In this document: piece after piece, positions 2,278 through 45,829 of the stretch
How the letters are laid out: each line of letters begins with the position of its first letter
Position numbering within the stretch: the stretch's first letter is position 1
NCBI RefSeq assembly: GCF_988242995.1
Contig: NZ_OZ547043.1
DNA length: 64,000 nt
Direction: 5' to 3' (one strand)
Translations under genes and position numbers: made by a program
The notes under the pieces: generated by a model
The model's database searches: none
The model's input: only the letters and a program-made list of their open reading frames with translations
Told to the model about the DNA's origin: nothing

Positions 2278-2899
2278 AACTGCCATCCGGCTGACGGGTA
2301 AACAGGACCTGTTGATTATTCCCCGTATCAATGGTTAAGCCCGTCACCACGCCGCTGGCGTTCTGGCGGATTTTCACCATCTGCCCGTTTTGCAAATTAC
2401 TCAGCGGCTTACCCGCGCCTTCTACCTGCGCCATTGCATAGACATCGGTAGCGGGCAGCCCGTGGTCGCGGAACAGCTGTGCCATCGTTTTACCGGGTTC
2501 GACACGGTAAGAGCGCCATTGATTATCAATTCCGCTATCTGGCTGGAATGGTTGCGTTTGGGGGGGTTGCGGCTGCTCTTCTGGCTGGCCTTCCTGTATT
2601 GGTTCTGGAGCGACCGGAGCCACCTGATCAGGATCATTTTGTGGCGTGACTAATTGCGCCCGCAGCTGTTCTTCTGTCGGCGGTTGTGATTGCGACTGAA
2701 TATCTAACTGCGCTTCACGCGTCACCACCGGCGCGTTGGGCGTATCATCAGATGGAAGCAGAAATCCGACCACCAATACAATGGCGGCAATAATGATCCC
2801 CCGACGATGCATCGGCGGCAGCGGGTCCATGAAGCGAAAATTGTCCGGCGCGTGCCAGACTTTCTCCAGGGTTGGTTTTAGTTCAAAGCGCCCGGGCAT
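2261..2899 (-). CDS. ytfB: OapA/LysM-domain cell division protein YtfB
   Basis: ORF with a proline/glutamine-rich linker and a single transmembrane segment; start taken at MPGRFELKP (212 aa), an upstream ATG at 2935 would give 224 aa. Confidence 0.85.
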
Positions 2900-3116
2900 G
2901 GTTTCCTCCTGCTCCGCGTCTTGTTCCTCAATCATAGCCTATGAATAAGCTAACGCTATGATGTCCGTGGTAAACCCGCCTTTATTATATTCATACGGGA
3001 TATTGCTATTGTTTCTTTTTCCCCGGGATTTGTCATCATTCCCGCGACAAAGTTTTACCCAAAGAAGTGTGGCTGATATGCTGCCCGCTACTTTATACCC
3101 TAAGAAAGGAAATACG

Positions 3117-3737
3117 ATGACCACCCCAACTTTTGACACCATCGAAGCGCAAGCAAGCTACGGCATTGGTTTGCAGGTAGGGCAACAACTGAGTGAATCT
3201 GGCCTGGAAGGGCTGCTGCCAGAAGCACTGGTTGCAGGCATTGCTGATGCGCTGGAAGGCAAACATCCGGCTGTTCCGGTTGATGTGGTGCACCGCGCGC
3301 TGCGTGAAATCCACGAACGCGCCGATGCCGTTCGTCGTCAGCGTTTCCAGGCGATGGCTGCTGAAGGTGTGAAATACCTGGAAGAAAACGCCAAAAAAGA
3401 AGGTGTAAATAGCACCGAATCTGGCCTGCAATTCCGCGTGATCAACCAGGGCGAAGGCGCAATTCCGGCACGTACCGACCGCGTTCGTGTTCATTACACC
3501 GGAAAACTGATCGATGGCACCGTGTTTGACAGCTCCGTCGCTCGCGGCGAGCCAGCTGAATTCCCGGTTAACGGCGTGATCCCTGGCTGGATTGAAGCGC
3601 TGACTCTGATGCCGGTAGGTTCTAAATGGGAACTGACTATCCCGCAGGAACTGGCATATGGCGAGCGTGGCGCAGGCGCGTCCATCCCTCCGTTCAGCAC
3701 CCTGGTGTTTGAAGTCGAACTGCTGGAAATCCTCTAA
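3117..3737 (+). CDS. fklB: FKBP-type peptidyl-prolyl cis-trans isomerase
   Basis: 206-aa product [20 protein letters not shown]... with an FKBP C-terminal domain; internal ATG chosen within the longer track ORF 2958-3737. Confidence 0.93.
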
Positions 3738-36029: not shown

Positions 36030-38168
36030 TTAACCGATCTGCCCATTTCCCAAATGTTTAACGCGGCGCTTAACTTCTTCCTGCTTACCAGCGTTAAACG
36101 GACGTGCATCCGGGCTACCTAAATATCCGCACACGCGGCGAGTCACCGACACACGGGAGGCGTCATGGTTACCACATTTCGGGCAAGTGAAGCCTTTGCT
36201 GGTGCACTCGAACTCGCCAGTAAAGCCACACTCGTAGCACTCATCGATCGGCGTATTGGTGCCGTAATACGGTACATGCTGATAGCTGTAATCCCAGACA
36301 TCTTCCAGCGCCTTCAGGTTGTGCTGAATGTTTGGATACTCGCCGTAGCAAATGAAACCACCGTTCGCCAGCGGCGGGTAAGGCGCTTCAAAGTCGATCT
36401 TGTCATACGGGTTCACCTTTTTCTCCACATCAAGGTGGAAACTGTTGGTGTAGTAACCTTTATCGGTCACGCCCGGCACCACGCCAAACTCAGCGGTATC
36501 GAGACGGCAGAAGCGGTCGCACAGGTTTTCACTTGGCGTGCTGTAGAGACTGAAACCGTAACCCGTTTCTTCTTTCCACTGATCCACCGCCTGACGCAGA
36601 CGTTCAACAATCGCGATACCTTTCGCGCGGAGCTGCTCGTTGTCGTAAACATGCTCGCCGCCGAACAGCGCGTTAATGGTTTCGTGGATGCCGATGTAAC
36701 CCAGCGAAATAGACGCACGACCGTTTTTGAAGATTTCAGAAACGTCGTCGTCAGCATTCAGACGCACGCCACAAGCGCCTTCCATATAGAGGATCGGGGC
36801 TACGCGCGCTTTCACGCCCTCGAGACGAGCGATACGGGTCATCAGCGCCTTACGTGCCAGCACCAGACGTTCATCCAGCAGCTTCCAGAAGGTGGCTTCA
36901 TCGCCTTTTGCCTCCAGAGCAATACGCGGCAGGTTCAGGCTGATCACGCCGAGGTTGTTACGACCATCGTGGATCTGCTCGCCGTTTTCATTTTCCCACA
37001 CGCCGAGGAAGCTGCGGCAGCCCATCGGGGTTTTAAACGAACCGGTGACTTTCACTACCTGATCGTAGTTCAGGATATCCGGATACATGCGCTTGCTTGC
37101 GCACTCCAGCGCCAGCTGTTTGATGTCGTAGTTCGGATCACCTTTTTTATGGTTCAGGCCATCGCGAATCGCAAACACCAGTTTCGGGAACACCGCAGTT
37201 TTACGGTTTTTACCGAGGCCGGCGATACGGTTACGCAGGATCGATTCCTGAATCAGGCGCGACTCCCAGCTGGTGCCCAGACCAAAACCAAAGGTTACAA
37301 ACGGCGTTTGACCGTTGGCGGTATGCAGGGTGTTTACTTCGTACTCCAGCGACTGGAAGGCATCGTAGCACTCTTTGATGGTACGAGAGTTAGCGTAGCC
37401 TTCGGCGTCCGGGATGTTCCACTCTTCTGCGGTCTTGCGATGTTTGTTGTAGCTGGCGGTGACAAACGGTGCCAGCACTTCATCGATACGGTTAATGGTG
37501 GTGCCGCCATAAATATGGCTGGCGACCTGAGCAATAATCTGCGCAGTTACAGCGGTTGCCGTAGAAATCGACTTCGGCGGTTCAATCTCGGCGTTCCCCA
37601 TTTTAAAGCCCTGGGTCAGCATGCCTTTCAGGTCGATCAACATGCAGTTGAACATCGGGAAGAACGGCGAGTAATCGAGATCGTGATAGTGAATATCACC
37701 ACGTTCATGTGCCTGCACCACGTCACGCGGCAGCAGGTGCTGGCGTGCATAGTGTTTAGCCACGATCCCGGCCAGCAGGTCGCGCTGGGTTGGAATCACC
37801 TTGCTGTCTTTGTTGGCGTTTTCGTTGAGTAACGAGGAGTTGGTCTGCTCGACCAGACCACGGATCTCCTGGTTCAGGCGACCGCGTTTTTCACGTTCAA
37901 TGTCGCGATCGTGACGGTACTCGATGTAAGCACGAGCCAGTTGTTTGTATGGACCCGACATCAGCTGGTTTTCAACTGCGGTCTGGATCTCATTGATATC
38001 CACCTGGTTGCGGCCCTGCATCTGCTCGCTGACAACCGCGGCAACAGTGGCGCAATAATCGGCATCATCGACTTCCGCTGCTTTAGCTGCACGCAGAATC
38101 GCTTCTTTGATGCGCTCTGATTTAAACGGCACTTTGCAGCCGTCTCGTTTCATCACATGCGGTGTCAT
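36030..38168 (-). CDS. nrdD: Anaerobic ribonucleoside-triphosphate reductase (class III)
   Basis: 712-aa ORF with ATP-cone N-terminus and C-terminal glycyl-radical motif; Zn-binding cysteines near the C-terminus. Confidence 0.96.
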   Translation of the reverse strand: MTPHVMKRDGCKVPFKSERIKEAILRAAKAAEVDDADYCATVAAVVSEQMQGRNQVDINEIQTAVENQLMSGPYKQLARAYIEYRHDRDIEREKRGRLNQEIRGLVEQTNSSLLNENANKDSKVIPTQRDLLAGIVAKHYARQHLLPRDVVQAHERGDIHYHDLDYSPFFPMFNCMLIDLKGMLTQGFKMGNAEIEPPKSISTATAVTAQIIAQVASHIYGGTTINRIDEVLAPFVTASYNKHRKTAEEWNIPDAEGYANSRTIKECYDAFQSLEYEVNTLHTANGQTPFVTFGFGLGTSWESRLIQESILRNRIAGLGKNRKTAVFPKLVFAIRDGLNHKKGDPNYDIKQLALECASKRMYPDILNYDQVVKVTGSFKTPMGCRSFLGVWENENGEQIHDGRNNLGVISLNLPRIALEAKGDEATFWKLLDERLVLARKALMTRIARLEGVKARVAPILYMEGACGVRLNADDDVSEIFKNGRASISLGYIGIHETINALFGGEHVYDNEQLRAKGIAIVERLRQAVDQWKEETGYGFSLYSTPSENLCDRFCRLDTAEFGVVPGVTDKGYYTNSFHLDVEKKVNPYDKIDFEAPYPPLANGGFICYGEYPNIQHNLKALEDVWDYSYQHVPYYGTNTPIDECYECGFTGEFECTSKGFTCPKCGNHDASRVSVTRRVCGYLGSPDARPFNAGKQEEVKRRVKHLGNGQIG

Positions 38169-38403
38169 GATCGCTCCATATTTTTAAGAACAGGTTATCC
38201 ACAGAAATTGGGAAAGGCGTTTTCCGGTTTTTTTGTTTCGTTTTCCGGTGCTTTCCGCAATCGCCATCCGCTTATCCACAACGCCGCACCTTTTTCGTGG
38301 GGAGCTGTAGTAGCAATTATAGTCGATTAATACAACATATTGGGTTGGGACGCATTTTAAAGTCTATATATAGTGCTTTGCATCAAGGATGTTTGAACTT
38401 TTT

Positions 38404-38417
38404 TTGATGTAGCTCAA
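38404..38417. promoter_or_regulatory. Candidate FNR box upstream of nrdDG
   Basis: TTGATgtagCTCAA, a 9/10 match to the FNR consensus TTGAT-N4-ATCAA, about 240 bp upstream of the nrdD start. Confidence 0.4.
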
Positions 38418-38561
38418 AGTAAAAAGCAGAGCGTACGGATGACGGGCGCTACAGCGATATGTAAATTTTTTAATGAATTTTTTGATTATAAAATCAACAA
38501 AAACAACATACTGACAGGCAAAACCCCGGAATGACAGGCATTACCGGGGCTTAGCGAAGAT

Positions 38562-40217
38562 TTACTTCTGTAACCACCAGACAGCCTCAAAAGGCCGTAA
38601 AGTCATGGCACAGGGTTGTGGTGAGGCTTCTTCGTAGTTATGCATCACAAGCTGCCAGTTGCCGAGCATTTTCCCTGGCTGCCAGGGTTGGGTCTCACGG
38701 CTAAGGTTGGCAATGACCAGCAAGGTTTGCTCCTTCCACTCACGGCGATAGCACCACAATACAGGGCTGTTTGGCAGCAGATCCTGGTAATCGCCCCATG
38801 TCAGGACGGCTTCTTGCTTACGCAGTGCGATTAACTTTTGGTAGGTGTAAAACACCGAGGACTCATCGGTCAGCGCGGCTTCTACGTTGATTTCCTGATA
38901 GTTATCGCCCAGACCAATCCACGGTTCGCCAGCCGTAAACCCGGCATTATCGCCGTTGGTCCATTGCATGGGTGTGCGACTGTTGTCACGGGATTTACTG
39001 GCGAGGATTGCCAATAACTCGTCGGCATCACGCCCATCGTTGCGCAGCTCGGCAAACATATTGAGGCTCTCCACGTCGCGATAGTCAGTAATGCGCGTGA
39101 AATGCGGGTTGGTCATGCCAATCTCTTCGCCCTGGTAGATATACGGCGTTCCCTGCATGCCATGCAGCACCATCGCCAGCATTTTTGCCGCAGGCACGCG
39201 GTATTCACCTTCATCACCAAAGCGAGAAACAATGCGCGGCTGATCGTGGTTACACCAGAACAAGGCATTCCATGCCACGTTGTGCATTCCTTGTTGCCAG
39301 TGGCGGAACAATGTTTTCAACGCCACAAAGTCAGGTTTAGCCAGCGTCCATTTTTCACCACCGGGATAATCGACTTTCAGGTGATGAAAATTAAAGGTCA
39401 TCGACAATTCACTGCCTGTCAGTGCCGCATATCGCTGGCAATGCTCAAGGCTGGTGGAGGACATTTCACCTACGGTCATTAACCCGCGTGGCGTAAACAC
39501 ATCGCGGTTCATCTCGTGCAAAAACTCGTGTGCTCGTGGCCCGTCGGTGTAGAAGCGACGCCCGTCGCCATCCAGGTCATCAGGGAAACGCGGGTCTTTG
39601 GAGATCAGATTCACCACATCCAGGCGCAACCCGTCGACCCCACGATCGGCCCAGAACTCACAGACTTTTTTCAGCTCTGCGCGTACCGCTGGATTCTCCC
39701 AGTTGAGATCCGCCTGTTCTGGTGCAAAGAGATGCAAATAGTACTGTTCGCTTTCCGCATGCCAGCGCCACGCACTACCGCCAAATTTTGAACGCCAGTT
39801 GTTCGGTGGCGTTTCTGGTTCTCCATCGCGCCAGATATAAAACTGGCGGTAAGGGGTTGCTTTGTTCAGCGCCTCGCGAAACCAGGCATGTTGGGTAGAG
39901 GTATGGTTAAACACCATATCGAGAATGATACGAATCCCGCGCGATTTTGCCTGTGTCACCAGTTCGTCAAAATCGTCCAGCGTGCCGTAGGTGGGATCAA
40001 TAGCCGTATAGTTCGCTACGTCGTAACCGTTATCAACCTGGGGAGAGACATAAAAGGGGGTTAGCCAGATGGCATCAACGCCCAGTTTATGCAGATAGTC
40101 CAGGCGCTGGATAACGCCACGTAAATCGCCGGTGCCGCTACCCGTGGTGTCCTGAAAACTCTTTGGATAAATCTGGTAGATAACGCCGTTTTGCCACCAG
40201 TGGGGAAGATGAGTCAT
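38562..40217 (-). CDS. treC: Trehalose-6-phosphate hydrolase (GH13)
   Basis: 551-aa product MTHLPHWWQNGVIYQIYPKSFQD...; internal start chosen within track ORF 38562-40364. Confidence 0.95.
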   Translation of the reverse strand: MTHLPHWWQNGVIYQIYPKSFQDTTGSGTGDLRGVIQRLDYLHKLGVDAIWLTPFYVSPQVDNGYDVANYTAIDPTYGTLDDFDELVTQAKSRGIRIILDMVFNHTSTQHAWFREALNKATPYRQFYIWRDGEPETPPNNWRSKFGGSAWRWHAESEQYYLHLFAPEQADLNWENPAVRAELKKVCEFWADRGVDGLRLDVVNLISKDPRFPDDLDGDGRRFYTDGPRAHEFLHEMNRDVFTPRGLMTVGEMSSTSLEHCQRYAALTGSELSMTFNFHHLKVDYPGGEKWTLAKPDFVALKTLFRHWQQGMHNVAWNALFWCNHDQPRIVSRFGDEGEYRVPAAKMLAMVLHGMQGTPYIYQGEEIGMTNPHFTRITDYRDVESLNMFAELRNDGRDADELLAILASKSRDNSRTPMQWTNGDNAGFTAGEPWIGLGDNYQEINVEAALTDESSVFYTYQKLIALRKQEAVLTWGDYQDLLPNSPVLWCYRREWKEQTLLVIANLSRETQPWQPGKMLGNWQLVMHNYEEASPQPCAMTLRPFEAVWWLQK

Positions 40218-40266
40218 TACGTTATTCCTGCAAATGCGAGGGGGCGCAATTGCGCCCCGAAGAAAA

Positions 40267-41688
40267 TTAAACAATGTCCAGCGTGCCCAGGCGGTATTTC
40301 CGCTGATAGATAAACGAGGTGAGTACAATCGGGATGATGATGGCGATAGCCATTGCCAGCGCAAACACCTGCCAGTAGCTCGGTTGAATCGAGAGAATTC
40401 CCGGCAGGCCGCCTACGCCGATGCCATTCGCCATAACGCCGTTCAGGCCGCATAGCAATCCTGCCAGACCAGAACCAATCATCGCGCACAGCATCGGGAA
40501 GCGATATTTCAGGTTGATGCCGTACATTGCAGGCTCAGTGACCCCAAGCCAGGCGGAGATAGCGGCAGGCACGGAGATCTCGCGTTCATTGTGCTTGCGG
40601 CTGGAAATGATAATGCCTATCACGGCGGAGCCCTGAGCGATATTCGACAGTGCAATCAGCGGCCACACTGGCGTGCCACCCATGCTTTGAATCATCTGCA
40701 AATCAATAGCAAGCGTGGTCTGGTGTACGCCGGTGATCACCAGTGGGGCGTACAGGAAGCCAAACAATGCCGCGCCAATAGGTGCAAAGCTGCCGGTCAT
40801 CAGGTGACGTACCGCAAAGGCAACGCCATCGCCAATCATGCGACCAAACGGACCAATCAGCGCATGGGCGAGGAACACCGCGAGGATCAGCGAACAGACG
40901 GGCACCACCACCAGATAGAGGTAATCCGGCACGATGCGCTTAAGACGAGTTTCAATAACGCCCAGCGCCAGCCCGGCTAACAGTGCCGGGATCACCTGCG
41001 CCTGATAGCCCACTTTGGCGATGCTGAACATGCCAAAGTCCCATACTTCCGGCAGCTGCTGCCCGAGCAGATAAGCGTTCATCAGCTGTGGAGAAACCAG
41101 CGTTACGCCAAGCACGATACCGAGGATCGGTGTACCGCCCATTTTTTTCACCGCTGACCAGCAAATCCCGACCGGCAGGTAGAAGAAGATCGCTTCACCG
41201 ATCAACCACAGAAAATCGTAGATCGTTTGCAGGGAAGGGTACATTTGCGCCAGCGTCTGACCGTTGCTCATGGGCAAATCGCCGATCACATTGCGAAAAC
41301 CGAGGATCAAACCACCACTAATCAACGCGGGCAGCAACGGGAAGAAGATCTCCGCGAAATGAGAGATCAACTGCTCATGCCATTTCATATTCTGCCGTGC
41401 GGCTTTTTTTACCTGCTCTTTATCAACCTGCGCCTGTCCGGTTGACGCTATCAGTGCTTGATAGTAATCACCCACGTTGGTGCCAATCACCACCTGAAAT
41501 TGCCCGGCATTGGTGAAACAGCCTTTCACCATGGGGAGTTGCTCAATTTCTTTCGGTCTGGCATTGGCCGGTTGGTTGAGGACAAAGCGCAGGCGAGTAA
41601 TACAGTGGCTCACCGTCGCAATATTGCCGCGCCCGCCGACCAGTTCAATCAACCGATCGATATCCGTTTGGTTTATTTTGCTCATCAT
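40267..41688 (-). CDS. treB: PTS trehalose-specific EIIBC component
   Basis: 473-aa ORF with an N-terminal EIIB domain (CITRLR phosphorylation-site motif) and polytopic EIIC domain. Confidence 0.95.
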   Translation of the reverse strand: MMSKINQTDIDRLIELVGGRGNIATVSHCITRLRFVLNQPANARPKEIEQLPMVKGCFTNAGQFQVVIGTNVGDYYQALIASTGQAQVDKEQVKKAARQNMKWHEQLISHFAEIFFPLLPALISGGLILGFRNVIGDLPMSNGQTLAQMYPSLQTIYDFLWLIGEAIFFYLPVGICWSAVKKMGGTPILGIVLGVTLVSPQLMNAYLLGQQLPEVWDFGMFSIAKVGYQAQVIPALLAGLALGVIETRLKRIVPDYLYLVVVPVCSLILAVFLAHALIGPFGRMIGDGVAFAVRHLMTGSFAPIGAALFGFLYAPLVITGVHQTTLAIDLQMIQSMGGTPVWPLIALSNIAQGSAVIGIIISSRKHNEREISVPAAISAWLGVTEPAMYGINLKYRFPMLCAMIGSGLAGLLCGLNGVMANGIGVGGLPGILSIQPSYWQVFALAMAIAIIIPIVLTSFIYQRKYRLGTLDIV

Positions 41689-41753
41689 AAAGCCCCATGG
41701 CAGATGACATTTTTGGTTGGCTGCAGAATATATTGCGCGGAAAAATTTAAAAA

Positions 41754-41767
41754 CGGGAACGTTCCCG
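41754..41767. promoter_or_regulatory. Candidate TreR operator in the treB promoter
   Basis: Perfect 14-bp palindrome CGGGAACGTTCCCG about 70 bp upstream of the treB start. Confidence 0.45.
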
Positions 41768-41806
41768 AAACGCAGCGAAGATCACAATTTATCGTTCAGG
41801 AAACGA

Positions 41807-42754
41807 TCAGGACAGGGTGGCGGGGATGATGATTTGTTGCGGTTCGCTGCGCCCGGTTACCTGCGCGATCAACTGGCAGGCCGCCTGGCGTCCAGCTTCG
41901 GCGTAACCGGGATCTACGGTGACGATCTCCGGATGGAGGAATTTCATTAACGGCGTATTACCGACGCTCGCCAGTTGCAAGGTCTCGATGCGTTGCTCTT
42001 GCAGGTATTTACTTGCGCCAAGTGCCAGCGTGTCGGTTGCGCACAGTAACGCGGTAGTTTCAGGCGTAATCACTTTTGCTACGTTCTCATAGCCTTGCTT
42101 CATAGCAAGCCCTGGCAGAGCGGCAACGGGATGCAGTTTATGCACTTTGCAGAACGCCAGGTAGGCTTCGTGACGTCGCTTACCGGTCGTCACGTCACTA
42201 TGCGGCACGCCGAGATAACTGATATTACGATGCCCCTGGTCATACAGCCGTTGCATCAGGATCTTGATTGCCCCTTCGTCGTCATAACAGACCGAAGCAA
42301 AGCCTTTTGCGTCACGCGCCAGCAGAACCAGCGATGACTGCCAGTGGGCTAACATTTCTTCTGTTATGCCGGTAAAACCGAACAGCACTACGCCGTCGAT
42401 ATTACGCCGTTTCAGCACCCCCAAATGTTCGGCAACTAATTGCGGGGAAAACTGACTTTCCATCATGATTGGGTCGTAACCTTGTTCATAGAACGCTGGC
42501 AGCATGGTTTGAACGGCGAGATTTTCTGACAACGAATCCAGACGGGTAACAATGATGGCGACCACTTTATCGCTTTGCCCACGCATAGCGCGCGCAGAGC
42601 GGGAAGGGGAAAATCCATGCTGATTCATCACTGCTTCAACACGCTCGCGCGTGCGCTGGCTCACGCCGCTTTCGTTATTCAGCACCCGGGAAACCGTAGA
42701 TTTCCCCACGCCGCTTAAGCGTGCGATGTCTTTGATGGTCAGCCGATTTTGCAT
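41807..42754 (-). CDS. treR: Trehalose operon repressor (LacI family)
   Basis: 315-aa ORF MQNRLTIKDIARLSGVGKSTVSRVLNNES... with N-terminal HTH and periplasmic-binding-like effector domain. Confidence 0.95.
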   Translation of the reverse strand: MQNRLTIKDIARLSGVGKSTVSRVLNNESGVSQRTRERVEAVMNQHGFSPSRSARAMRGQSDKVVAIIVTRLDSLSENLAVQTMLPAFYEQGYDPIMMESQFSPQLVAEHLGVLKRRNIDGVVLFGFTGITEEMLAHWQSSLVLLARDAKGFASVCYDDEGAIKILMQRLYDQGHRNISYLGVPHSDVTTGKRRHEAYLAFCKVHKLHPVAALPGLAMKQGYENVAKVITPETTALLCATDTLALGASKYLQEQRIETLQLASVGNTPLMKFLHPEIVTVDPGYAEAGRQAACQLIAQVTGRSEPQQIIIPATLS

Positions 42755-42827
42755 CCTGTTGTCCCGTAACGTGTTGTTTAATTATTTGAGCCTAACTTTA
42801 CCCGTGCATTCAGCAATGGGTAAAGTC

Positions 42828-42845
42828 TGGTTTATCGTTGGTTTA
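42828..42845 (+). promoter_or_regulatory. PhoP box of the mgtA promoter
   Basis: Direct repeat GGTTTA-tcgtt-GGTTTA matching the PhoP consensus, about 290 bp upstream of the mgtA start codon. Confidence 0.8.
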
Positions 42846-42869
42846 GTTGCCTGCAGGTATTATATCGCC

Positions 42870-43132
42870 ATAGATGCTACGAATATTATTGGATTCTCCT
42901 TATTATTTGCGGCGCTTTTTTCACTTACCGGAGGTTATATGGAACCTGATCCCACGCCTCTCCCTCGACGGAGATTAAAACTTTTCCGGTAAGCCCGTCT
43001 TTTCACGGCGTTACCGGATGCGTAAGGCCGTGACGTTTTAACGTCCCTGCTCAGCTTTATTACCTTCAGGTAAGGCTTCGCCACGCCTGAAGACATTTCT
43101 GTACTGTTTCAGACAGTGTGGAGGGACTCCTT
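42870..43132 (+). promoter_or_regulatory. mgtA leader (Mg2+/proline-responsive attenuator region)
   Basis: Long untranslated leader between the PhoP-dependent promoter and mgtA, containing the proline-rich leader ORF mgtL. Confidence 0.7.
42939..42992 (+). CDS. mgtL: mgtA leader peptide
   Basis: 17-codon [20 protein letters not shown] with a GGAGG ribosome-binding site inside the mgtA leader. Confidence 0.85.
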
Positions 43133-45829
43133 ATGTTTAAAGAAATTTTTACCCGGTTCATTCGCCATTTACCTTCCCGTCTGGTTCATCGCGATCCATT
43201 GCCTGGCGCGCAGCAGACAGTGAATACGGCGGTCCCGCCGTCCTTAAGTGCGCATTGCCTGAAAATGGCGGTGATGCCCGAAGAAGAATTGTGGAAAACG
43301 TTCGACACCCATCCGGAAGGATTAAATCAGGCGGAAGTGGAATCTGCCCGCGAACAACATGGTGAAAATAAATTACCCGCACAACAACCGTCGCCGTGGT
43401 GGGTTCATTTATGGGTCTGCTATCGCAACCCCTTTAATATTTTACTCACCATTCTCGGCGCTATTTCTTACGCCACGGAAGATTTATTTGCCGCGGGCGT
43501 TATCGCGCTAATGGTCGCTATTTCTACGTTGCTGAACTTTATTCAGGAAGCACGTTCCACTAAAGCGGCAGATGCCCTGAAAGCGATGGTCAGCAATACT
43601 GCGACGGTGCTGCGCGTAATTAACGACAAAGGCGAAAATGGCTGGCTGGAGATCCCGATCGACCAGCTGGTGCCCGGCGATATTATAAAACTGGCGGCAG
43701 GGGATATGATCCCGGCAGATTTACGTATCTTGCAGGCGCGGGATCTGTTCGTCGCTCAGGCGTCGTTAACCGGTGAGTCTCTGCCCGTGGAAAAAGCCGC
43801 TACTACTCGCCAGCCGGAGCACAGCAATCCGCTGGAGTGCGACACCCTGTGTTTTATGGGCACCACCGTGGTGAGCGGCACGGCACAAGCAATGGTGATT
43901 GCTACAGGAGCCAACACCTGGTTTGGTCAACTGGCGGGGCGTGTTAGTGAGCAGGAAAGCGAGCCGAATGCCTTTCAGCAAGGGATCAGCCGCGTCAGTA
44001 TGCTGCTGATTCGCTTTATGCTGGTGATGGCTCCGGTGGTGTTGCTTATCAACGGTTACACCAAAGGTGACTGGTGGGAAGCGGCACTGTTTGCGCTTTC
44101 GGTCGCGGTAGGCCTAACGCCGGAAATGTTGCCGATGATTGTTACCTCGACGCTGGCGCGCGGCGCAGTAAAGCTGTCGAAACAGAAAGTGATCGTCAAA
44201 CATCTGGATGCCATTCAGAACTTTGGCGCAATGGATATTCTGTGCACTGATAAAACCGGCACCCTGACACAGGATAAAATTGTGCTGGAGAATCATACCG
44301 ATATCTCCGGTAAAACCAGCGAACGCGTGCTGCATAGCGCGTGGTTGAACAGTCATTACCAGACCGGACTTAAAAACCTGCTTGATACCGCGGTGCTCGA
44401 AGGTACGGATGAAGAGTCAGCGCGCTCGCTGGCCAGCCGTTGGCAAAAAATTGATGAGATTCCGTTTGATTTCGAGCGTCGCCGGATGTCGGTGGTAGTG
44501 GCAGAAAATACCGAGCACCATCAGCTGGTTTGCAAAGGTGCATTGCAGGAAATCCTCAATGTGTGTTCGCAGGTGCGTCACAATGGCGAGATTGTGCCGC
44601 TCGATGACATCATGCTGCGTAAGATTAAGCGGGTTACTGATACGCTGAATCGTCAGGGGCTGCGCGTGGTTGCGGTGGCGACGAAATACCTGCCAGCGCG
44701 TGAAGGAGATTACCAGCGGGCGGATGAATCCGACCTGATCCTCGAAGGATATATTGCTTTCCTTGATCCGCCAAAAGAGACAACTGCTCCGGCACTGAAG
44801 GCATTAAAAGCGAGTGGCATTACCGTAAAAATCCTTACTGGCGACAGTGAGTTAGTTGCAGCGAAAGTGTGCCATGAAGTGGGGCTGGACGCGGGAGAGG
44901 TGGTCATTGGTAGTGATATTGAAACGCTATCTGACGACGAACTGGCAAATCTCGCACAGCGCACCACGCTGTTTGCTCGCCTGACGCCGATGCATAAAGA
45001 ACGCATTGTGACCTTACTGAAGCGCGAAGGGCATGTGGTTGGCTTTATGGGCGATGGTATAAATGATGCGCCCGCCTTACGTGCTGCGGATATCGGCATT
45101 TCTGTGGACGGCGCGGTAGATATTGCCCGTGAAGCGGCTGATATCATCCTGCTGGAAAAAAGCCTGATGGTGCTGGAAGAGGGGGTTATTGAGGGACGTC
45201 GCACTTTCGCCAACATGCTGAAATACATCAAAATGACGGCGAGTTCTAACTTCGGTAATGTGTTCAGCGTGCTGGTGGCGAGTGCTTTCTTGCCCTTCCT
45301 GCCGATGTTGCCGTTACACTTGCTTATTCAGAACCTGCTGTACGATGTGTCACAGGTGGCGATCCCGTTTGATAACGTCGACGACGAGCAAATTCAAAAG
45401 CCGCAGCGTTGGAATCCGGCGGATCTGGGGCGCTTTATGATCTTCTTCGGACCGATCAGCTCGATCTTCGATATTCTGACGTTTTGCCTGATGTGGTGGG
45501 TATTCCATGCCAACACGCCGGAAACGCAAACGCTGTTCCAGTCGGGCTGGTTTGTGGTGGGCTTACTGTCGCAAACGCTGATTGTGCATATGATCCGCAC
45601 CCGTCGTGTACCGTTTATTCAGAGCTGTGCATCGTGGCCGTTAATGATCATGACCGTGATCGTGATGATTGTCGGGATCGCATTGCCGTTTTCACCGCTG
45701 GCCAGTTATCTGCAGCTGCAGGCGCTGCCGTTAAGCTATTTCCCGTGGCTGGTTGCGATTCTGGCAGGGTATATGACGTTAACCCAGTTGGTGAAAGGAT
45801 TTTATAGCCGTCGTTACGGCTGGCAGTAA
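43133..45829 (+). CDS. mgtA: Mg2+-importing P-type ATPase
   Basis: 898-aa product MFKEIFTRFIRHLP... with P-type ATPase motifs DKTGTLT and GDGINDAPAL; internal start chosen within track ORF 43118-45829. Confidence 0.96.
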   Translation: MFKEIFTRFIRHLPSRLVHRDPLPGAQQTVNTAVPPSLSAHCLKMAVMPEEELWKTFDTHPEGLNQAEVESAREQHGENKLPAQQPSPWWVHLWVCYRNPFNILLTILGAISYATEDLFAAGVIALMVAISTLLNFIQEARSTKAADALKAMVSNTATVLRVINDKGENGWLEIPIDQLVPGDIIKLAAGDMIPADLRILQARDLFVAQASLTGESLPVEKAATTRQPEHSNPLECDTLCFMGTTVVSGTAQAMVIATGANTWFGQLAGRVSEQESEPNAFQQGISRVSMLLIRFMLVMAPVVLLINGYTKGDWWEAALFALSVAVGLTPEMLPMIVTSTLARGAVKLSKQKVIVKHLDAIQNFGAMDILCTDKTGTLTQDKIVLENHTDISGKTSERVLHSAWLNSHYQTGLKNLLDTAVLEGTDEESARSLASRWQKIDEIPFDFERRRMSVVVAENTEHHQLVCKGALQEILNVCSQVRHNGEIVPLDDIMLRKIKRVTDTLNRQGLRVVAVATKYLPAREGDYQRADESDLILEGYIAFLDPPKETTAPALKALKASGITVKILTGDSELVAAKVCHEVGLDAGEVVIGSDIETLSDDELANLAQRTTLFARLTPMHKERIVTLLKREGHVVGFMGDGINDAPALRAADIGISVDGAVDIAREAADIILLEKSLMVLEEGVIEGRRTFANMLKYIKMTASSNFGNVFSVLVASAFLPFLPMLPLHLLIQNLLYDVSQVAIPFDNVDDEQIQKPQRWNPADLGRFMIFFGPISSIFDILTFCLMWWVFHANTPETQTLFQSGWFVVGLLSQTLIVHMIRTRRVPFIQSCASWPLMIMTVIVMIVGIALPFSPLASYLQLQALPLSYFPWLVAILAGYMTLTQLVKGFYSRRYGWQ

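Follow-up and report, generated by a model that had tools for sequence, protein, structure and literature searches.

Operators of LacI-family repressors are even palindromes with CG at the centre, typically 16-22 bp in length, and they are found approximately 30-140 bp upstream of the gene that they regulate (PMC4052901). TreR, the LacI-family trehalose repressor, represses treB and treC (PMC5443562; PMC9783417), and trehalose-6-phosphate is reported as its inducer (PMC3505978, Table 1; PMC4052901, supplement). In RegPrecise, the TreR regulog of the Enterobacteriales comprises 8 regulators and 8 sites, with trehalose-6-phosphate as the effector (PMC4052901, supplement). According to PMC3505978, RegulonDB holds two TreR sites at treBC, and a genomic SELEX survey detected a TreR binding peak within the sdhCDAB operon (PMC4797297). 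Binding of TreR to operator DNA, with trehalose as an anti-inducer, is described in a preprint (bioRxiv 10.1101/2025.04.02.646877), which cites Horlacher & Boos 1997 for it. A full-text literature search for the 12-bp sequence GGGAACGTTCCC, and for GAACGTTC together with TreR, found no paper in which the operator is printed, and in the PDB no DNA-bound TreR was found, the effector domain (4XXH) being the only part of the protein represented there.

In this study, we analysed a DNA stretch of 64,000 nucleotides (contig NZ_OZ547043.1 of assembly GCF_988242995.1), hereafter referred to as the window. The first-pass annotation, made from the letters of this stretch, had pointed out a perfect 14-bp dyad of the LacI-family type in the treB promoter beside treR and had proposed that it is a likely TreR operator. 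Both the position and the description of the dyad proved to be correct (41754-41767, with CG in the middle), and its symmetry, central CG, location and adjoining treR gene all fit a LacI-family site. The assignment to TreR is supported by the form and position of the element, its conservation, its linkage to treB and its recurrence beside TreR orthologues.

The element appears to be the TreR operator of treBC that is already known from RegulonDB/EcoCyc and RegPrecise. The organism, the spacer and the neighbouring regulator gene are the same as those of the E. coli operator, and no difference could be detected between the two; RegPrecise gives one TreR site per genome, and one was found here too. 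Compared with other LacI/GalR operators (lacO, purR boxes, Cra boxes and CcpA cre sites), the treB site is alike in its even symmetry, its central CG and its upstream position. By analogy, the likeness would extend to binding by a dimer through the helix-turn-helix and hinge helix and to relief by a sugar-phosphate effector. The symmetric part of the treB site is 12 bp (14 bp in E. coli), not the 16-22 bp that is the norm for the family, which is a quantitative departure and does not disqualify a dimer site built on half-sites. The half-site is GGGAAC, in which the outer G/C triplets are invariant. Furthermore, E. coli treB has a single site without an auxiliary operator, whereas lac has three operators.

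A single palindrome of this kind lies in the treR-treB spacer

The window is part of an E. coli chromosome of the K-12 type. The genes treR, treB and treC are all located on the minus strand, with treB as the first and treC as the second gene of the treBC operon; mgtL and mgtA are divergent and lie upstream of treR. The features of the locus, in window positions, are as follows.

38562-40217, minus strand: treC, trehalose-6-phosphate hydrolase (TIGR02403; b4239, 551 aa)
40267-41688, minus strand: treB, PTS trehalose EIIBC (NF008236, E 1e-293, 973.8 bits; b4240, 473 aa)
41689-41806: treR-treB spacer, 118 bp, which contains the palindrome
41754-41767, strandless: palindrome CGGGAACGTTCCCG, the proposed TreR operator, perfect over 14 bp, with its core at 41755-41766
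41790-41806, minus strand: imperfect hairpin ATCGTTtcctgAACGAT immediately past the treR stop, -5 kcal/mol
41807-42754, minus strand: treR, LacI-family trehalose repressor (TIGR02405, E 2e-177, 589 bits against a cut-off of 357; b4241, 315 aa)

The 118-bp spacer is identical to positions 4466181-4466298 of MG1655, where the palindrome occupies 4466246-4466259. The palindrome is even, carries CG at its centre and can be read as CGGGAA-CG-TTCCCG. It is located 66-79 bp upstream of the treB ATG and 40 nt downstream of the treR stop. A 301-bp probe over the region was present in 5417 of 5426 complete genomes, with 100% identity to many E. coli genomes, and the 50 bp around the palindrome were identical in 5008 of the 5426 complete E. 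coli genomes.

The palindrome by itself is no more than would occur by chance. The window contains 5 perfect 14-bp palindromes, and simulation with a first-order Markov model gave 5.07 ± 2.3; the 14-mer at up to 3 mismatches matched 6 times in the window, against 3.07 expected. It is the position and the conservation of the palindrome, and not palindromy alone, that make it meaningful.

A motif search for additional copies had been proposed in the first-pass annotation, and when it was run a single exact copy was found in the window. No further copy of the 12-mer was present at up to 1 mismatch across the whole window, and no second copy of the core was found at up to 3 mismatches in 38000-43200. 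By chance, GGGAACGTTCCC would be expected about 0.3 times per 4.6 Mb. There is a discrepancy between the one TreR-type site found in E. coli (up to 3 mismatches, 5 kb) and the two sites of RegulonDB. An everted repeat after the treR stop, CGTTTCC-TGAACG, was considered as a second TreR site and rejected because its half-site-like words are wrongly oriented; this repeat is conserved only in Escherichia and Citrobacter, where it takes the form of a weak hairpin. The hairpin ATCGTTtcctgAACGAT has everted half-site-like words and is excluded as a TreR site on that ground.

The 12-bp core is the same in 76 of 80 Enterobacteriaceae species

A set of 80 Enterobacteriaceae loci with TreR proteins 82-99% identical was collected by a TreR alignment scan, with one genome per species. 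The 12-bp core GGGAACGTTCCC was identical in 76 of the 80 species. Adjacency of treR and treB was seen in 75 loci, and the spacer of every one of them contained exact GGGAACGTTCCC (75/75); the 76th locus with the exact core, L049, is truncated by the end of its contig. The distance from the start of the core to the called treB ATG was 67-155 bp in 74 of these 75 species, mostly 80-95 bp, and 209 bp in the other (L055).

The column profile was ungapped, anchored on the core, and made from 77 sequences including that of the window. All 12 consecutive core columns, the central CG included, were invariant (77/77). The C that flanks the core on the 5' side was present in 76 of the 77 sequences, and the base on the 3' side, which completes the 14-bp palindrome, was A in 66 and G in 10. 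Given that this outer C/G pair is variable, the conserved element is 12 bp long and the perfect 14-mer is a feature of Escherichia; a functional core of 12 bp, not 14, is thus one addition made by the comparative analysis. The flanks of the core, TTTC...ATTT, were conserved as well, without symmetry.

The background for this comparison consisted of 51 spacer positions outside the CRP site, the operator, the -35 and the -10, a selection that was our own choice. None of these 51 columns was invariant, and their mean pairwise identity was 0.41. In the last 100 treR codons of the same species, 1 of the 100 third positions was invariant, and the longest invariant coding run was 5. Judged by these sequence counts, the core is under extreme purifying selection, and the constraint on the operator exceeds that on the treR coding sequence.

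The core holds a fixed place among predicted promoter elements

Around the core, the following promoter elements were placed.

41768-41789, minus strand: putative CRP site, a 22-mer that abuts the palindrome, with the half-site TGTGA at 41786-41782 and a poor right half, CTGCG
41748-41753, minus strand: predicted weak -35 element TTTTTA, which begins 1 nt past the 12-bp core (TTTTCA in most species)
41725-41730, minus strand: predicted -10 element TATTCT, 24 nt downstream of the core, with the family pattern T-A-n-n-C-T
41717-41718, minus strand: predicted treB transcription start (4466209-4466210 in MG1655), at A residues 7-8 nt past the -10, placed from the conserved -10 geometry

The TGTGATC half-site was invariant (77/77), and its spacing to the core was fixed. 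On the right, the CRP-type site has a poor half that was not conserved as TCACA; binding of CRP here is putative and is inferred from the consensus and the literature. The centre of the CRP-type site is located 18 bp upstream of the centre of the operator. Past the core, T13 and T14 of the -35 region were invariant, and T15/T16 were at least 92% conserved. The spacing from the -35 to the -10 is 17 nt, and the -10 columns (36-41 nt from the core start) showed T in 73, A in 77, C in 66 and T in 77 of the 77 sequences; at this place Citrobacter has TACTCT, Enterobacter TAGGCT and Raoultella TAGGAT. From this arrangement, the treB 5' UTR is predicted to be approximately 30 nt long, and GGGG (41696-41693) would serve as its ribosome-binding site. 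Relative to the predicted start, the operator centre would lie near -42.5 and the CRP-type centre near -60.5/-61.5, which would be a class I position.

A simple sigma-70 consensus scan of the spacer called no promoter. This is expected of an activator-dependent promoter, and we take the treBC promoter to be CRP-dependent. Given the negative scan, it is conservation, and only conservation, that places the -35 and -10 elements. The TreR footprint obtained by Horlacher and Boos in 1997 is reported to cover a palindrome that immediately precedes the treB -35, and this position matches the geometry derived here.

An insertion at the operator was seen in E. coli HB101 (NZ_CP184671.1, L090), in which an IS1A element (approximately 2533-3300) adjoins the operator at the equivalent of window positions 41764-41772. 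The final 4 bp of the palindrome fall within the 9-bp target duplication, CCCGAAACG. In this genome treB retains its operator and core promoter, and the CRP site is displaced by approximately 0.8 kb, so that the regulation of treBC may differ from that in K-12. HB101 was the only genome with the IS1A break among 5363 matching genomes.

The site accompanies treB rather than treR

On the comparative evidence, it is treB to which the site belongs, not treR. A cassette of 1.7-1.8 kb separates treR from the site in Enterobacter chuandaensis (L037) and E. quasihormaechei (L047), and the block made up of the CRP site, operator and promoter is unchanged, at 84-86 bp from the treB ATG. In Escherichia sp. 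E1V33, E. whittamii, Enterobacter asburiae AEB30 and a Pluralibacter MAG (L003, L004, L029 and L033), an intact treR gene (86-96% identity) has been kept, and the palindrome, treB and all or the greater part of treC have been lost jointly. In Trabulsiella odontotermitis (L041), an AT-rich extra fragment of the treB 5' region is present at 2118-2298, with exact GGGAACGTTCCC 79 nt before its ATG.

Several further observations were made at these loci. The cassettes (1613-3416 in L037 and 3948-5809 in L047) carry two opposite-strand ORFs, one of 159 aa (starting MSTPAHLWLEDENGSP...) and one of 230 aa, and the L037 junction carries a second copy of approximately 70 bp from the treR 3' end. A remnant of the treC C-terminus, 31 aa in length, is retained in L003. 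The treR genes of the treB-less loci are orphan repressor genes beside mgtA, with the region of loss downstream (approximately 3946 onward). The L041 fragment sits upstream of treR and holds roughly the first 35 codons of a gene resembling treB (MLKINQQDIDKLIELVGG...). The promoter region of a foreign treB seems to have been inserted where mgtA is disrupted, and this fragment would be what is left of it.

The motif recurs beside distant TreR orthologues

When 1.8 billion representatives were searched in full with HMMER, full-length TreR-like proteins with 36-52% identity were obtained, and the contigs encoding them were examined. Together with the Enterobacteriaceae loci, the motif occurs beside TreR orthologues spanning 36-99% identity. 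The distant loci, with the identity of their TreR, are as follows.

Orbus hercynius, Orbales (L083/L084; 47%): exact core, with the 20-nt TGTGA-to-core spacing of the Enterobacteriaceae and a -10, TATGCT, in the same register
Metagenomic contig L082 (49%): exact core
Metagenomic contig L087 (41%): exact core
Metagenomic contig L095/L096 (37%): exact core
Metagenomic contig L093/L094 (36%): GAGAACGTTCCC, with one mismatch
Salinivibrio (L085/L086; 46%): two degenerate copies, one (TGGGAACGATTCCA) in the register of the Enterobacteriaceae and the other (TGGGAACGTTACCA) overlying the predicted start
Metagenomic contig L092 (38%): GGGAACGTTACC, present twice ahead of the regulator gene

In Salinivibrio, the TGTGA-to-core spacing is again 20 nt, and CATAAT occupies the -10 register. 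The comparison adds that three gammaproteobacterial orders (Enterobacterales, Orbales and Vibrionaceae lineages) share one fixed register of CRP site, operator, -35 and -10. Among the distant TreR orthologues, the recognition helix is invariant at K18, S19, T20, V21, S22, R23, V24 and N26, and the hinge is invariant at P50, S53, A54 and R55. An invariant recognition helix together with a recurring motif is as expected if TreR reads GGGAACGTTCCC, and the comparison extends this unchanged pairing of helix and operator down to a repressor identity of approximately 36%.

Two lineages have two TreR-type operators each. In the Salinivibrio spacer (2745-2895), one is located at the -43 register and the other over the predicted start; in L092, the pair lies at 619-690, and its location ahead of the regulator gene suggests an autoregulated operon with treR as the first gene.

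Two other proteins from the search were set apart. Beside P0129 (L091, 43% identity), the TreR-type motif was not found on the contig; a different palindrome, TGTAAACGTTTACA, was present, and no adjacent treB was identified. P0129 is probably a paralogue and was left out of the helix alignment. P0126 (L081, 52% identity) was considered as a divergent TreR and discarded as an artefact, since its contig (Logan SRR18107613) is a Klebsiella-type treR-treB locus in which essentially every C has become T. It looks bisulfite-converted, with gggaatgttttt where GGGAACGTTCCC is expected.

Other readings of the palindrome

Given that the palindrome follows the treR stop by 40 nt and runs into a stretch of T residues, it could be read as an intrinsic (rho-independent) terminator of treR, with TreR binding elsewhere or with the element playing both roles; in that case it would be conserved in order to keep treR transcripts out of treB. 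A consensus scan indeed flagged CGGGAACGTTCCCG with TTTTTAAATT on the minus strand as terminator-like, the T-run past the core is conserved with T13 and T14 invariant, and just 10 of 73 loci have a further, convincing hairpin behind the treR stop, most species having no other obvious treR terminator. We nevertheless consider this reading very unlikely. Rho-independent terminators typically have a GC-rich stem of at least 5-8 bp, with a folding energy well below -7 kcal/mol, followed by a U-tract. The RNA of the palindrome has the U-tract, but its hairpin is marginal in E. coli, with a 5-bp stem and -7 kcal/mol (z -1.1), and in most species the stem is reduced to 4 bp and -5.4 kcal/mol; in a 76-nt context, the fold was no better than that of shuffled sequences (z -0.79). 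No Rfam covariance model matched at E ≤ 1 in 41500-42000 on either strand. Moreover, all 12 positions, including the 4 bases of the loop, are invariant in the 77 sequences, and compensatory changes are absent. Invariance of both stem and loop without covariation is the signature of DNA read by a protein, not of an RNA stem. The arrangement of the genes also speaks against termination: in L037 and L047, the element is unchanged 1.7-1.8 kb from treR with two opposite-strand genes in between, which makes a role as sole terminator hard to hold; the element is lost where treR is kept but treB is absent; and it lies upstream of the regulator gene in L092 and overlaps the predicted treB start in L087 and L095. 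A minor insulating role of the palindrome may exist beside that of an operator.

It is even less probable, to the point of being extremely so, that a different LacI-family paralogue (PurR-like or Cra-like, with an AACGTT-centred site) or some other factor binds the palindrome and that the proximity of treR is a coincidence. An AACGTT centre is common to other LacI-family operators, and the PurR and Cra consensus operators have it. Against such a regulator, the motif follows treR-type regulators with an invariant helix in the Enterobacterales, Orbales and Vibrionaceae, it always adjoins a treB-type PTS gene and vanishes with treB, its outer GGG/CCC triplets are invariant, and RegPrecise gives the regulog to TreR. 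The probability that the palindrome is a functionless chance occurrence is close to nil. Perfect 14-bp palindromes do arise at the chance rate in the window (5 against 5.07), but 12 consecutive columns are invariant in 77 sequences, among which neutral sites are almost never invariant, and the motif recurs in distant lineages; the conservation data refute the chance reading for practical purposes.

Hairpins that follow the treR stop directly were also surveyed. In E. coli, ATCGTTtcctgAACGAT is a possible remnant of a treR terminator, and an equivalent hairpin reaches a dG of -6 kcal/mol or lower in 10 of 73 loci. Since so few loci have it, the argument that the palindrome would be redundant as a terminator is only partly available. 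The treR stop of Leclercia, Silvania and Kluyvera is followed by a stronger hairpin, built from other stem sequences, and then by TTTATT; this hairpin is the likelier treR terminator in those genera, decayed in E. coli.

A model for the control of treBC by TreR

Considering the gene context, the phylogenetic footprint, the association with treB, the distant orthologues with their invariant helix, and the databases and literature, the palindrome is very probably the single, LacI-family TreR operator in the treBC promoter. A TreR dimer, with a helix-turn-helix and hinge of the typical LacI/GalR type, would bind the half-sites GGGAAC/GTTCCC around the central CG. The operator would thereby be wedged between the CRP site and the -35, which starts one base past the core, and from this position bound TreR should block RNA polymerase (sigma region 4 and alpha-CTD) at the -35 as well as the contact with CRP; we infer this steric mechanism, like the exact start, from the spacing of the elements. 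In the TreR-bound state, treB, for the trehalose PTS transporter, and treC, for the trehalose-6-phosphate hydrolase, would be shut off. Trehalose-6-phosphate, the inducer named in the literature and the product of TreB during uptake, would release TreR from the DNA, after which expression would presumably need cAMP-CRP. At this control point, the uptake and breakdown of trehalose would then be coupled to the presence of trehalose-6-phosphate and to the catabolite status of the cell.

The treB promoter resembles the CytR/CRP promoters (deoP2, cdd and udp) in that a LacI-family repressor site adjoins a CRP site in a CRP-dependent promoter. However, CytR is placed between two CRP sites, and its binding needs protein-protein contact with CRP, whereas treB has one putative CRP site and a strong operator of perfect symmetry, which borders the -35 as well; at the treB locus, nothing indicates cooperative binding of TreR and CRP. 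It seems rather unlikely that, within this module of CRP site, operator and promoter, TreR works mainly as an anti-activator that displaces or contacts CRP or alpha-CTD in the manner of CytR and not by mere occlusion, or that the element doubles as a weak terminator or roadblock insulating treB. Anti-activation or insulation, if true, would refine to a modest degree a switch that is already known.

The TreR operator reading matters little beyond annotation, and no new biological question is opened by it. TreR and GGGAACGTTCCC could be of use as an orthogonal repressor-operator pair for synthetic biology and as a calibration case for operator prediction.

A conserved hairpin between treB and treC

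A second perfect 14-bp palindrome, GGCGCAATTGCGCC, was observed at 40241-40258 in the treB-treC spacer (40218-40266). It lies within a 7-bp GC-rich stem-loop, GGGGCGC-nnnn-GCGCCCC, of approximately -17 kcal/mol, after which there is no U-tract. The stem was conserved in almost all Enterobacteriaceae loci examined, and the loop varied (aatt, agtt, cgtt, attt, gctg and others). A conserved stem with a variable loop indicates an element that acts at the RNA level, in contrast to the operator palindrome, in which both loop and stem are invariant. The hairpin may be an intercistronic mRNA stabiliser, or a processing or attenuation signal that sets the TreB:TreC ratio.
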